The notes beneath the pieces are model-generated. The model was not told where the DNA came from, searched no databases, and saw nothing but the letters and a program-made list of their open reading frames with translations. A stretch of DNA of 63,968 bases, filler included, from Thraustochytrium aureum (Eukaryota): assembly GCA_012862495.1 (NCBI GenBank). It is 9 parts of 6 records of this genome, joined end to end, with 100 filler letters (N's around TTAATTAATTAA, not from the genome) between each part and the next. Parts side by side here need not be neighbours in the genome. Positions count along the whole stretch, not along the records: positions 42,791 to 52,541 come from BLSG01000368.1; 8 more parts are not named here. One strand, written 5' to 3'. The position numbers and the translations under genes were made by a program. Within the stretch, counting starts at the first letter, position 1, and each line of letters begins with the position of its first letter. Shown piece after piece: positions 45,380 through 52,541 of this stretch.

Positions 45380-48256
45380 TCATTCCGGGGCCGCCGCGAG
45401 GAGCTCGTTGCCCGGGTCGATCTCGCGTAGCACCCGAAAGGCCTCGTCGTGCGAGCTGCCCCCTCGGATGATCGCCTCGATGAACGCAACGCACGCGGCC
45501 TTGTGCTCGGTCACACAGCATTTGACAAAGCCGAGAGCCTTGGCCACGAGGTCGACGTTGTCAATGTGGGACAGCGCTGATTCTTGGACGCGCTGGATGA
45601 CGCTCGGCGGAACTGCCAAGTTGGTTGAGCTCTTGATTCGGCAGAGCGCCAAGTAGACCTCCGCGACGAGGTCCGGCGTGTCGGCGCATAGGTCGAGCGC
45701 GCGAAGAACGTCTTTCTCGTACGACATGTTCTTTGCTGGAGCTCGGCGCAGTGCGGCGCAGACCGCAGCCGGGTTGGCAGCCATCCGGACGACCGCGAGC
45801 GAAACGATTTCATTGCTGGCACTCGCGCACGCCAAGACTTGGGCGTCAGAGAGCTTTGTGATCATCCGGGGATAGCGCGACACGACAATTTGCACAAGCG
45901 CGCTTTCTGGTGCGAGCATCTGGACCTGGGCGACCACAGCCTCATCCCACAGCACAGAGTCGGCGACGTACTGGAGAGCTTCCACATTGTTGCTGAGGGC
46001 GGCGAGCACGACGTCGCGGTCTGCGCGCAACGCGGGAGCGGCCTTGCCGAGGAGGCAGCCGTTTCGCGAGACGGCCGCAAGCATGACGTCGCGGCAGCCG
46101 TAGTGGTCCGGTCGCAAGCACGAGAGGGACGGCTCGACATTGCACCGAATGGCAGCGGCCAGGAAATCGTCGTCGCAATTTCTCAGCGCATTGCTTGCCG
46201 AGACCAGCTCGCGGACGTAGCTGTTTGGCGCCAAGGCAAAGAGGCCCGTGCCAAGCAGCTCGCTCGGCGGCGGCGTCGAGCTGTTCGGGCCGCCATCCGA
46301 AAAGCACTTGGCAGCCTCAAAGTCGTCCGGGCCGTCGCATGGCTTGCGAATCTCGTCGAGCGCAGCCTTTGCCGCGTACACGGCCTCAATGGCCGCCTCG
46401 ATGGACAGCCGAGCCGCCACGGCCTCGTCGGTCTCGGACAGGTCCAGGGCGTCTGCATCGTCGCGCAGAGCGGCCTCCATGCGCGGCGTGACGCGGTCGC
46501 AGTCGCCGCACGTGTGGGCGAGCACGGCGACGAGCAAGGCCTCGTCAATCGCGCACTGGAGGTCGCGGGCGTCGATTTGGTCGCAGGTAGCGCTGGAGGT
46601 GGCGCTGTCGATCGCATCGGCGGCCCTGCGTTCAAACTCTCGGAGGATGTTTGGCTGCGCCTCCAGCATGACAGCGGCCAAGGCGGCGTCGAGCATTTGC
46701 ACAACCCCGCCAAACCTGCTGAGGTTGAGAGGGATCTTGGACTCCGTAACGATCTTGTCGTGCAGGGTCGCTTTGATTGACGCGCACGCAGTTTCGATCA
46801 GCGCAGGCCCTTGCGCAGTAATGGCGGCTTTGAGATCTGCGCGCAGGCGAAGGCGCCGCAAAAGCGGCGCCCTCTCGGGCACGACGCCCAGGTCCACCGA
46901 GCACGCAAACAGCCGGGCGAGCTCAGTCGTGCAGAGGTTCAGAAACATGTCAGAGCCGCGCTCGACGCCCTCGACCAGATCCTCGACCGTGACGGTGCTG
47001 GGCTTTTTGCCAAGGTGCCAGAGCTTGGTCAGGAGACGCTGCAGCTCGGCTCGCGCGCGAGCGGTCTCGCTGTCAACCCAGCACTCGCGCATGTACGACT
47101 CGAGCATCTCGCCCAACGCCGCCAGCACCGCGGGCATGCCGTGCTTGGACGGGTCGAACTCGATCCCGTGCGAGGCGCAGCGCTCCTGCAGGACGCGGTG
47201 CTCTGTGGCGAAAGAGCCGCGCAGCGTCTCGGGCTCTTTGCGCGTCGTGTCGCGGTTGACCACAGGCACGATTGCGGCGATCCCCGCGTCGCGCGGAAAC
47301 TCGCGGCTCCCCGGATCCAGTCGATCTTTGAGGTCCTCGTCGCCGCCCGGCTTGTCGACCATGGTGAGCACGGCTACGGCCGGCTTGGCCGCCTCGCGCA
47401 GCAGTCGCCAGATTCCGTTGTTGCGCAGGCTCTGGGACCGGCCGGAAACCACGGCCAGCACGAGTGTGTGCGGCACGGCGAGCATGCGCTGCGTGAGCGC
47501 GACGGTGTCGTTGTGGGCCTTTTCGGGGGCGCTCACGATCCCGGGAAGGTCGACCAGGTCGATGGTCGGCACGTTCGGGGCGCGGATCTCCACCTGGACT
47601 TCGCGGTCGACCACAACGTTGTCCCCGTCGTCGTCCGGGTGGACCTCGCAGATGAACGCTTTGATCTCCTCGGCGACGCGCGAGGAGAAGGGCTCGTCCG
47701 ACTGGTCGCCCGTCTTGCACACGTACCGCTCCGACTCGCGCACCACCGTGTCGGTGTTGGTGTCCACGAGCCGGATCACCACGTCGTTGCAGTGCCGGTT
47801 GCAGCGCAGCATCAGCCGGACGGGCATGCGCGTGCAAAAGCGCTTGTCGCGGGGAAAGATCTCGCGCATGGCGATGCGCTCCAGCACGGAGGACTTGCCT
47901 TCGTTCTCCATGCCGCACACCATGATCTGCGGCAGCTGCAGCGAGAAGGACCCTCGCACCTTGACGACCGCGTTCAGCAGCCGCCGGTACGCGGCATGCT
48001 CGCCGCACAGCACCTGCGTGATGCCGCCGTGCATCTCGGCCTGTTCAGCCGCCGCGAGGTACCCGGCGCGCCTCTCGGCGGTCCGCAGTGTCTCGAGCGC
48101 ATCGTGGATACGGTCGCGGTCGCCGCCGACCAATTCGGCGTCGTGGTGCCGCAGAAAGGCCGCGCGCTCCACGTCGACATCCTCCAGCGCCGCGCGGCGG
48201 TCAAGCCCGAGCACGTCGAATGCGTCAAACCCCACAACCTGCCACTCGTCGCGCAT
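45380..48256 (-). CDS. Dynamin-superfamily GTPase with degenerate N-terminal J-like domain and C-terminal DUF4116-like and helical repeats
   Basis: LPQIMVCGMENEGKSSVLERI (G1), FPR...CTRMP (G2), LVDLPGI (G3), LTMVD (G4 variant); DAFDVLGL...DALETL..AERRAGY; DRDVVLAALSNN.EALQY repeats; intact intronless ORF. Confidence 0.88.
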   Translation of the reverse strand: MRDEWQVVGFDAFDVLGLDRRAALEDVDVERAAFLRHHDAELVGGDRDRIHDALETLRTAERRAGYLAAAEQAEMHGGITQVLCGEHAAYRRLLNAVVKVRGSFSLQLPQIMVCGMENEGKSSVLERIAMREIFPRDKRFCTRMPVRLMLRCNRHCNDVVIRLVDTNTDTVVRESERYVCKTGDQSDEPFSSRVAEEIKAFICEVHPDDDGDNVVVDREVQVEIRAPNVPTIDLVDLPGIVSAPEKAHNDTVALTQRMLAVPHTLVLAVVSGRSQSLRNNGIWRLLREAAKPAVAVLTMVDKPGGDEDLKDRLDPGSREFPRDAGIAAIVPVVNRDTTRKEPETLRGSFATEHRVLQERCASHGIEFDPSKHGMPAVLAALGEMLESYMRECWVDSETARARAELQRLLTKLWHLGKKPSTVTVEDLVEGVERGSDMFLNLCTTELARLFACSVDLGVVPERAPLLRRLRLRADLKAAITAQGPALIETACASIKATLHDKIVTESKIPLNLSRFGGVVQMLDAALAAVMLEAQPNILREFERRAADAIDSATSSATCDQIDARDLQCAIDEALLVAVLAHTCGDCDRVTPRMEAALRDDADALDLSETDEAVAARLSIEAAIEAVYAAKAALDEIRKPCDGPDDFEAAKCFSDGGPNSSTPPPSELLGTGLFALAPNSYVRELVSASNALRNCDDDFLAAAIRCNVEPSLSCLRPDHYGCRDVMLAAVSRNGCLLGKAAPALRADRDVVLAALSNNVEALQYVADSVLWDEAVVAQVQMLAPESALVQIVVSRYPRMITKLSDAQVLACASASNEIVSLAVVRMAANPAAVCAALRRAPAKNMSYEKDVLRALDLCADTPDLVAEVYLALCRIKSSTNLAVPPSVIQRVQESALSHIDNVDLVAKALGFVKCCVTEHKAACVAFIEAIIRGGSSHDEAFRVLREIDPGNELLAAAPE

Positions 48257-48499
48257 TTTCGCCTCGCCCGCTCGCTCGCTCGGGACCAATCAGGGTCTGC
48301 TCTAGATTCGTTTTTCAAATACGACCTATACCTTGTAAACGTCCCCGTGAAAGTCAGCTACTTACGAACCTCCGTGGAGCTAGCTAGCAGCCCGTGACGG
48401 TCATCACTGCGCGAGGCCGCGTGCTGCAGAGCCCCCAGACCAGTCCCGGAGGAACTGGACAGGCAGCCAAAAGTCTGATGGCGAAGCGCCTGACGGATA

Positions 48500-48670
48500 A
48501 TGAATGGCCTTGCGATGGCGACACCAAAGTGCGTGTGTTGACGAAAACCCTCGGATCGAAAATGTTGCAACCTCGTGGCGGAGCAGCCGGAGATAACCAA
48601 GTGCAGTCTGCGTGCCCCATCCACCGGTGGCCTCGATCATCAAGGGTAGGAGGGCCATGCCGGACACCGA
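48500..48670 (-). mobile_element. Possible remnant of a non-LTR retrotransposon restriction-like endonuclease (CRE/R2-type) 3' end
   Basis: LLPLMIEATGGWGTQTALGYL resembles the FxPxxxE(T/S)xGxWG motif; short and degenerate. Confidence 0.4.
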
Positions 48671-51723: not shown

Positions 51724-51937
51724 CTTCCCTCGCGGCCTGCTGCTTGCTCGTCGTCGCCGTGACGGCTGCAGAACGGGGACTGCCAGTGCAGTGCAGCAGC
51801 AGCGACGCGAGATCGTGAGCGAGCGGGTGCACACCCGTGAGCAACCGGTACCAGACCGGCGCGCAACCGGCTGGGGCGGTCATGCGAAGCACAAAGAAAC
51901 TCGCTTGCTTACGGCTCTGTCGAGTAGGCCTACTTGT

Positions 51938-52541
51938 TTACTTGCGGATGCTTTGCTCCTGGTGGAAGGCCAAGTGGCGCGCGGCGAACGGCAAGTTCGC
52001 GTCGCCAGAGCTCAAGGCCTGGGCGAGTCGGGCGTGCGCCTGCGCCTCGTCGACAGCAAAGGGCTCTTGATGGTAAGCCTTTCCTGGCGCCCAGATCAAG
52101 CCCGAGCGGTCTTCATCGAGGAGGAAGCTCGCCATCGAGGTGTGCACGAAGGCGACCGAGTCCTCCCGCACGTCCAGGAAGGCGCTCGCGATGCGCAGAA
52201 AGCCCTTGAGCCGGGCTTTGCGCTCGATGTTGAGCAGCTTGCCGACGACCTCGAGCGGGAGCGGCTCGCGGGCGACGGCCATGCTGCCGAGCAGCGCTTG
52301 GTACTTGTCGTAGTCGCCCTTGAGCGGGCCTTCGAGGAAGCGCAGAAAGTTGCTGCGGTACATGTCGTCCAGGCCGTCCGGGAACGCGTCGCTGTCCTCC
52401 TGGAGCTGCTTGAGCGTCACCGATTGGGCGTCGCATTCGGAGAGCTGGTCGCCGATGAAGCGCGCGTACAGGAAAAGGCCCTTGGCGCGGCCCGCGAGGA
52501 GCTCCAAGGCGGGCTCGAGCTCCTCCTTGGGGTTTGCCAAA
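51938..52541 (-). CDS. C-terminal helical/winged-helix part of a NACHT/STAND NTPase (NLR-like); P-loop lies beyond scaffold end
   Basis: RAKGLFLYARF, FPDGLDDMY...F.R, LL..MAVAREPL, AFVHTSMASFLLDE.RSG, VD...AHARLA, FAARHLAFH match the region after NACHT in HET-E-like proteins. Confidence 0.8.

Follow-up and report, generated by a model that had tools for sequence, protein, structure and literature searches.

Three adjacent genes on one scaffold

Three open reading frames (ORFs), here called genes A, B and C, lie side by side on the minus strand of a single scaffold of Thraustochytrium aureum. The window, meaning the whole stretch of DNA that was analysed, has 63,968 bases, along which all positions are counted, and is made up of 9 pieces joined by 8 identical artificial linkers (44 N, TTAATTAATTAA, 44 N). 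The piece at 42791-52541 (9,751 bp) is one scaffold with no linker inside, and it holds the three genes within 7.2 kb. A first-pass annotation had described three consecutive minus-strand genes on one scaffold without a linker, which the ORFs and the mapping of the linkers confirm, and had proposed that they may form one antiviral or non-self module. Two assembly gaps interrupt the scaffold, one of 1,000 N at 44359-45358 and one of 201 N at 49013-49213. The main features are as follows.

45380..48256, minus strand: gene A, dynamin-superfamily GTPase with a DUF4116 repeat (ORF, Pfam, homologues, tree)
49013..49213, no strand: assembly gap of 201 N beside a GAC/GTC triplet run, lying either within the 3' end of gene B or directly past it (sequence)
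49214..51723, minus strand: gene B, part before the gap, from the ATG at 51723, 836 codons, open to the gap (translation, Pfam)
51938..52540, minus strand: gene C, C-terminal fragment, 200 codons and a stop (51938-51940), open at the scaffold end (translation)

The spacers had been put at about 215 bp and about 570 bp. The first of these is accurate, since C and B are 214 bp apart, but the 566 bp between B and A are obtained only if the reading frame runs through the 201 N. Four public sequencing runs cover the stretch: X3, which we guess to be DNA, and X1, X2 and X4, which come from one study and which we guess to be RNA, none of the runs being recorded as RNA. The C-B spacer is bridged by an X3 contig that covers 51557-52116. 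The runs X1, X2 and X4 have no contig over 51783-51922, and their contigs stop at 51769.

Elsewhere in the window, 39 of the 81 ORFs of at least 200 amino acids were checked against Pfam, and a family was found in 12 of the 39. The matches include an EF-Tu-type GTPase, a protein kinase, Mtr4/DSHCT, an FGE-sulfatase and WS/DGAT. Together with the closest relatives of gene A, they are consistent with a GC-rich labyrinthulomycete. The families of genes A, B and C do not recur among these 39 ORFs, and tblastn did not find a second copy of any of the three genes within the window.

Gene B carries a TPR array and a predicted TIR/HET-type domain

Gene B has a TPR array. The Pfam family TPR_12 matches five stretches (85 bits, cut-off 30.1, E 4.2e-24) and TPR_10 scores 60.3 bits (cut-off 27.5), and with both above their cut-offs the array named in the first-pass annotation is secure. 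The domain that precedes it is more difficult to assign.

50011..50217, minus strand: best-scoring TPR_12 stretch of gene B, residues 504-572 (Pfam)
50887..51474, minus strand: TIR/HET-like domain of gene B, approximately residues 85-280 (motifs, weak profile and fold matches)

In the N-terminal 280 residues, no Pfam family is found above its cut-off. The domain contains the motifs ATVFVSYSW, YFWIDVLCLNQ and RGWCLYE (residues 173-179), the last with Glu179 encoded at 51190-51192. HET (PF06985) scores 14.9 bits with the whole protein and 17 bits with the domain alone (E 0.035 and 0.008), in both cases below the cut-off of 22.5, and its match is confined to residues 103-132, on the WIDxxCxNQ block. 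A search with residues 60-260 retrieved nine eukaryotic proteins (E 1e-26 to 8e-6). TPR families are present in eight of them, one of which also has WD40, and the ninth has no family; NACHT and NB-ARC are absent from the families listed for the nine. Because eight of the nine homologues have TPR and none has NACHT or NB-ARC among these families, the architecture of gene B is, judging by its relatives, of a stand-alone type and not that of a broken NOD-like receptor (NLR). In the ESM Atlas, all of the 30 nearest clusters are without a Pfam family, and the commonest taxa in the three top clusters shown are Chlorophyta and Haptophyta. As a single protein, gene B has no match in metagenome contigs or viral contigs.

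The domain was aligned in eight sequences, with P0006 and P0008 left out as near-copies. All eight share the blocks FVS(H/Y)xW, (F/W)(I/F)Dxx...Q, SPW and R(A/G)WCLYE, and the residues S, D, F, W, C, L and E are invariant (8/8). The conserved Glu of the WCxxE block is present in gene B as the last residue of RGWCLYE, in a block in which W, C, L and E do not vary. The Glu of WCxxE is the catalytic residue in plant TIRs and in SARM1, which are NADase TIRs. TIR together with TPR has been mentioned for molluscs. The available portion of one preprint describes a bacterial anti-phage pair in which TIR is likewise paired with TPR (bioRxiv 10.1101/2023.05.26.542521).

Comparisons of profile and fold point in the same direction. 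When the profile of the domain is run against all PDB sequences, the TIR domain of TLR10 comes first (E 0.29), and HMMER pairs vFVShaw with AFISYSE and raWCLYE with NEWCHYE. An AlphaFold model made from the alignment (pLDDT 61.3, pTM 0.61) has alternating strands and helices. The top 10 Foldseek matches of this model are all TIR-bearing proteins (RUN1, RPP1, RPPT, SPARTA, SNC1; E 0.0095-0.029). With VIA-align, among 48,161 representative chains, the RPS4/RRS1 TIR has a Z of 6.0 (rmsd 3.7, 117 residues), BcThsB 5.9 and RPP1 5.6. TIR or ThsB account for 7 of the 10 chains at Z>=5 and for 29 of the 30 best rows in a second look; a Z under 8 may, by this tool's warning, reflect a common arrangement. 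In view of this warning, the TIR fold is called likely and not firmer: the N-terminal domain of gene B is likely of a TIR/HET-type fold with a conserved WCLYE glutamate. The HET/TIR-like call of the first-pass annotation thus finds concordant sequence and fold signals, all of them weak, and its HET part stays below the Pfam cut-off. HET is remotely related to TIR and has homologues in stramenopiles, haptophytes and green algae, according to the available text of Dyrka et al. (2014, PMC4986451). The kinship described there fits a domain with both a HET-like WIDxxCxNQ block and a TIR-like WCxxE block.

Gene C, the probable end of a STAND protein in an expanded family

The fragment of gene C matches neither NACHT nor a P-loop nor any other Pfam family at E<=1, and an NTPase part, if there is one, lies beyond the scaffold end at 52541. 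A C-terminal repeat (sensor) family is also missing from it, the ORF stopping without repeats. In the ESM Atlas, the best clusters reach 0.96-0.95 with 171-183 of 256 features shared and with 13 of the 30 matches in the top set; among shuffled proteins, a score of 0.95 turns up in about 1 of 100. The clusters are annotated with WHD_GPIID (91% and 69% of members), WHD_TANC1 (30%) and WHD_NWD1 (33%, at 0.91), families of the winged-helix domain found behind NACHT-type NTPase domains. Among longer proteins, a word search picked out 4,424 possible homologues, of which not one reached E<=0.001, and phmmer against the PDB gave chance-level rows only, such as a cytochrome P450 at E 0.5. The single-sequence AlphaFold model (pLDDT 42) is too poor for a fold search. 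By its winged-helix-like tail, gene C is likely the end of a signal transduction ATPase with numerous domains (STAND, NACHT-type) from an expanded family. The earlier NACHT/STAND call is to this extent a reasonable guess; the sequence does not contain a NACHT domain.

52119..52541, no strand: look-alike region of gene C, many short contigs 80-95% alike in all four runs

The expansion of the family is suggested by the sequencing runs. At a likeness threshold of 80%, dozens of short contigs match the upper part of gene C (420 bp, 52119-52541), and at site 52370 another letter is present in 17 contigs of X1, 8 of X2, 16 of X3 and 11 of X4. At the differing places listed for the tail of gene C (52080-52112) and for gene A, a run shows a single contig. 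The simplest reading is that the upper part of gene C belongs to a large family of recent paralogues, and these many look-alike copies are probably why the scaffold ends there. Such an abundance fits fast-evolving non-self genes.

Gene A belongs to a separate dynamin clade

Gene A encodes a GTPase of the dynamin superfamily that contains one DUF4116 repeat. Its ORF extends over 45380-48289, with the first ATG at 48256 and 958 codons, and its stop codon (45380-45382) is 21 bases away from the 1,000-N gap.

47300..47926, minus strand: G domain of gene A (P-loop GMENEGKS and DLPG in the sequence; Pfam Dynamin_N)
45959..46096, minus strand: DUF4116 repeat of gene A, residues 732-777 (Pfam, 39.9 bits, cut-off 24.9, E 3e-10)
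48059..48232, minus strand: degenerate J-domain-like N-terminus of gene A, approximately residues 20-77 (alignment with relatives)
45659..45889, minus strand: variable C-terminal stretch of gene A, codons 801-877, past DUF4116, with 8 of the 21 codons that differ between strains, 7 of the 8 by replacement

Dynamin_N is matched over residues 122-286 with 67.1 bits (cut-off 27, E 2.5e-18). In a phmmer search of the PDB, Drp1 is best (residues 108-410, E 5.8e-15), followed by Vps1, Mgm1 and dynamins. The presence of a dynamin-like GTPase gene, as first annotated, is thus well founded. The analogy with Mx that had been drawn from it is not, since Drp1 and Vps1 are the best solved relatives and none of the 34 in this search is Mx by name. 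Pfam finds neither Dynamin_M nor GED in gene A at E<=1; most of the more distant homologues have both. The C-terminal extension is without a recognised fold. At the N-terminus, Pfam does not match DnaJ at E<=1, and gene A and the paralogues of Hondaea fermentalgiana have an alignment gap opposite the HPD of the relative P0018 (WHPDKN).

Gene A has 57 homologues at E<=0.001. The closest, which are 37-42% identical, are an MMETSP transcript (37%) and three H. fermentalgiana paralogues (40-42%), which sit on three different contigs and of which two are labelled 'Mx1' by the source databases. In a G-domain tree of 56 rows, which contains no animal Mx, a branch supported at 100/98 sets gene A and ten relatives off from the other rows, among them 17 of Vps1/Drp and 4 fungal ones that the sources name Mx. 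Pfam detects DnaJ at the N-terminus of three of the eight closest relatives (P0018-P0020) and in the metagenome locus L001; it does not detect it in the Hondaea paralogues. The relative P0018 ends in WD40 repeats. The metagenome locus L002, on a eukaryotic contig of 31.5 kb, holds a relative that is colinear with gene A over residues 83-777, DUF4116 included, and continues with a second DUF4116 and then a ubiquitin domain. This colinearity makes dynamin plus DUF4116 a recurring architecture. Relatives of gene A were not found in viral contigs.

The members of the clade, at 45380-48256 of the window, in P0018-P0020, at L001:1895-3550 and at L002:9665-12514, have a common layout. A DnaJ N-terminus, intact in P0018-P0020 and L001, is followed by the dynamin G domain and stalk and by a variable C-terminus, which is WD40 in P0018, DUF4116 in gene A, and two DUF4116 with ubiquitin in L002. 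In the available text of two dynamin-superfamily papers (PMC11789081, PMC10280142), a term search for DnaJ, DUF4116 and WD40 had no result. The arrangement of J domain, GTPase core and swappable C-terminal repeats recalls NLRs by analogy, and it is the side observation most worth following.

Two further relatives have unusual layouts. L008:635-3840 contains a G domain of dynamin type that is more distant and is split over two frames, with an LRR ORF (LRR_4, 2e-61) behind it on the same strand. A single dynamin-LRR gene is not supported, as only the G-domain pieces match the clade profile. The MMETSP transcript that is closest to gene A (P0013, 1,088 aa) has two Dynamin_N stretches, at about 124-284 and about 927-1000, and results either from a tandem fusion or from a transcript assembly that ran two adjacent paralogues together.

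Between strains, gene A appears to change quickly. Compared with a 2,170-base X1 contig (window 45486-47655), it differs in 24 letters and 21 codons, of which 18 are amino-acid-changing and 3 silent. X3 matches the window at most of the 24 sites, and the X1 differences are therefore not simple errors. There are 546 silent and 1,620 replacement sites, which puts pN/pS at about 2.0. This value is not significantly above 1 (p=0.19), whereas an omega of 0.3 or less is rejected (p=3e-4), as is an omega of 0.5 (p=0.01). The check on strain dN/dS that the first-pass annotation had proposed thus yields the excess of replacement codons without significance for a ratio above 1. Gene A is fast-evolving, its changes between strains are mostly amino-acid-changing, and in this it fits non-self genes. 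Gene B varies less, with 10 letters in 2,483.

These data bear on whether the genes are ordinary housekeeping neighbours without a defence role. Gene A would then be a dynamin that serves trafficking or the remodelling of organelles and whose J domain is no longer functional, gene B a TPR scaffold with an alpha/beta domain that merely resembles TIR, and gene C one copy of a repeated gene, in decay. The usual task of J domains in trafficking is to recruit Hsp70, which speaks for this possibility, as does the position of Drp1 and Vps1 nearest to the G domain of gene A among solved structures. The fold scores of gene B are within the common-arrangement range of the tool, gene C ends without a repeat domain, with a tail that departs from its look-alikes near 52133-52141, and PADLOC has no family for any of the three proteins. 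On the other hand, the WCLYE and FVSxxW blocks of gene B align to the matching blocks of TIR, and its fold matches are almost exclusively TIR and not other flavodoxin-like folds. Gene A in turn lacks the Dynamin_M and GED families and the purifying selection that would be expected of a core trafficking gene. We consider a housekeeping role of all three genes rather unlikely.

The assembly gap between genes A and B

The gap at 49013-49213 separates gene A from genes B and C. It raises the possibility that the scaffold join is wrong, and that gene A is not a neighbour of the other two. Consistent with such an artefact, no contig of the four runs crosses the gap, a triplet repeat flanks it, and the scaffold ends in repeated sequence. 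Against it, contigs enter the gap from both sides. From the right, X2 and X4 contigs reach 175-179 letters into it, and from the left an X2 contig has a loose end of 24 letters of TCG/TCA repeats; these ends come close to the stated 201 N, itself an arbitrary length. The stretch to the left of the gap is moreover continuous with the upstream region of gene A in the window, and the X3 contig already mentioned bridges the spacer between B and C. An assembly artefact is thus highly improbable.

48823..49012, minus strand: stretch past the gap, in which gene B may end, with its last codons and 3' end (sequence, ORF list)

The triplet run beside the gap sits at 48998-49012, and the X2 contig extends it by its 24 repeat letters. 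As this GAC/GAT run is continued into the gap, an acidic poly-Asp stretch is probable close to the end of gene B. Directly past the gap, the minus strand reads GACGACGACTGA... The stop of gene B may be at 49001-49003 or at 48823-48825, the frame past the gap not being fixed.

The spacer between A and B had also been thought to contain a retroelement scrap. This was not found: the seven reading frames of 48361-49011 have no retroelement family, and a zinc-finger match at E 0.06 is all that they yield. Within the spacer, the short stretches 48413-48447 and 48502-48567 are common to several unrelated contigs with loose ends on both sides, and X3 and X4 contigs have 23 different bases in place of 64. 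The spacer would thus contain a small element, repeated or variable, that has no protein or RNA family.

Other features of the scaffold are few. It has neither Rfam matches nor tRNAs. Notable direct or inverted repeats are absent from 45359-52541, with no repeats linking the genes, and the tandem repeats of the scaffold are short and restricted to 43262-43854. They include 39- and 43-base repeats at 43435-43634, between two divergent ORFs (42792-43424, minus strand, and 43537-44358, plus strand) that have hydrophobic, signal-peptide-like N-termini and no Pfam family.

Neighbours or a module

A true immune island would be one in which the STAND protein of gene C acts as sensor or switch, the TIR-like-TPR protein of gene B as effector, and the GTPase of gene A is directed to a membrane or capsid, the three cooperating. 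Such an island would be in keeping with the position of the genes on one strand within 7.2 kb, with the lack of these families in the 39 other ORFs scanned and with the many look-alike copies of the gene C family. The evolution of gene A (18 replacement against 3 silent codons, pN/pS about 2, omega <=0.3 rejected at p=3e-4) and the swappable C-terminal repeats of its clade (WD40 in P0018, DUF4116 in gene A and L002) would suit it as well. However, there is a single instance of the adjacency, on a fragmentary scaffold in which no contig spans the gap between A and B. Three genes fall on one strand by chance in one case out of four, the families were picked after the fact from a wide immune-like set, and very many windows were scanned.

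The comparison with other genomes does not help the island either. In ten metagenome loci that hold relatives of gene A, tblastn (E<=0.01) found no relative of B or C, and the claim that the three families form one module is left without support. Only L002 (22 kb, 10-kb flanks) is both close enough and long enough to judge among the ten. The genes around it encode a WD40 protein, CRAL/TRIO, a 2OG-Fe oxygenase, ribosomal protein S5/S2, PP2C and myosin, and none of them is of TIR, TPR or STAND type. The proposed check for co-clustering of the families elsewhere thus gave 0 of 10, with a single informative locus and nothing positive. We regard a cooperating island as distinctly unlikely.

On balance, genes A, B and C are probably three separate neighbours, two of them likely of immune type, and their adjacency is probably not a working module. 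Immune-type genes are plausible here; a module is unproven, as it amounts to one unreplicated adjacency on a gapped scaffold. As for the families themselves, searches with hidden Markov models and structures establish Dynamin_N, DUF4116 and TPR_12, but leave HET below threshold and NACHT absent from the scaffold.

Several observations weigh against this reading of separate neighbours with immune-type members. Three immune-type families within 7 kb, against none in the 39 other ORFs of the window, are not obviously a product of chance, and the absence of co-clustering comes from one informative locus of a distant eukaryote. The excess of amino-acid changes in gene A fits an arms-race gene. Each TIR signal for gene B is weak alone (best Z 6.0, under the tool's warning level, pLDDT 61, no Foldseek match at E<=0.001), and Pfam on eight family members gives HET in one of the eight (E 0.008) and TIR_2 in one of the eight (E 0.19). 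The family call of gene C comes from a single language-model look-up, with Pfam, PADLOC, PDB and word searches empty.

With its predicted TIR/HET-type fold and the WCLYE glutamate, gene B would resemble other repeat-plus-TIR proteins in the way it works. In the absence of a ligand, the TPR array would keep the TIR-like domain inactive. Once a ligand binds, the TIR-like domains would form clusters and either consume or convert NAD+ or bring in a partner, and the cell would stop growing or die. Gene C is likely the tail of a NACHT-type NTPase from its expanded family. For gene A, assembly on a membrane or some other target is likely, by way of the variable C-terminal part, which is the fastest-changing part between strains. 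The three genes would each act alone.

Comparison with known systems

As far as the available text of Dyrka et al. (2014, PMC4986451) goes, fungal NLR-like STAND proteins (HET-NACHT/NB-ARC-TPR/WD/ANK) are built from the same HET/TIR, TPR and winged-helix-like blocks. In the labyrinthulomycete locus, in contrast, the blocks are in separate genes, and in gene B the TIR/HET-like domain adjoins TPR directly. Neither gene B nor the listed families of its nine homologues show a nucleotide-binding domain. Like NLR repertoires, the gene C family has many look-alike copies, but gene C ends without repeats, and highly conserved internal repeats were not found in 45359-52541.

Gene B is closer in design to SARM1 (ARM-SAM-TIR), to the BcTir/Tpr pair (bioRxiv 10.1101/2023.05.26.542521, available portion) and to plant TIRs, with which it shares the predicted TIR-type fold and WCxxE. 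Its helical repeat array adjoins the domain, as in SARM1 and BcTir/Tpr, and could sense a ligand or hold the TIR inactive. It differs from all of these in having no Pfam TIR match above threshold and a HET-like WIDxxCxNQ block.

Mx-like proteins are reported in stramenopiles in the accessible part of PMC11789081. Gene A resembles Mx as a large dynamin-superfamily GTPase with two Hondaea paralogues that databases name 'Mx1'. In contrast to Mx, it is without Dynamin_M and GED at E<=1, its clade (100/98) is apart from the fungal Mx-named rows, and its relatives have DnaJ N-termini and WD40 or DUF4116 C-termini. As in bacterial defence islands and plant NLR clusters, genes of immune-type families adjoin. 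Such islands and clusters are defined by recurrence across many genomes, whereas here the co-location occurs once and is absent at L002.

Significance

The literature search found no description of cell-intrinsic immunity in labyrinthulomycetes, and a full-text search found no paper whose title bears on NACHT in thraustochytrids. At present, the locus is a lead only, with genes that are real and families that are interesting. It is a very long shot that it preserves, kept together, a labyrinthulomycete non-self system made of a TIR/HET-like-TPR sensor-effector without a Pfam family, a massively copied STAND family and a dynamin-based counterpart of NLRs. By analogy, this counterpart may consist of a J domain, an assembling GTPase core and a swappable recognition part (WD40, DUF4116, perhaps LRR) that evolves fastest.

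Labyrinthulomycetes are marine protists of ecological and industrial importance. As a group with a J domain and with C-terminal repeats that vary, the dynamin clade deserves a separate study. If the gene B family is an active TIR-type effector, its architecture would be one without a nucleotide-binding switch, and TIR-based death and defence signalling would extend to another large branch of the eukaryotes.

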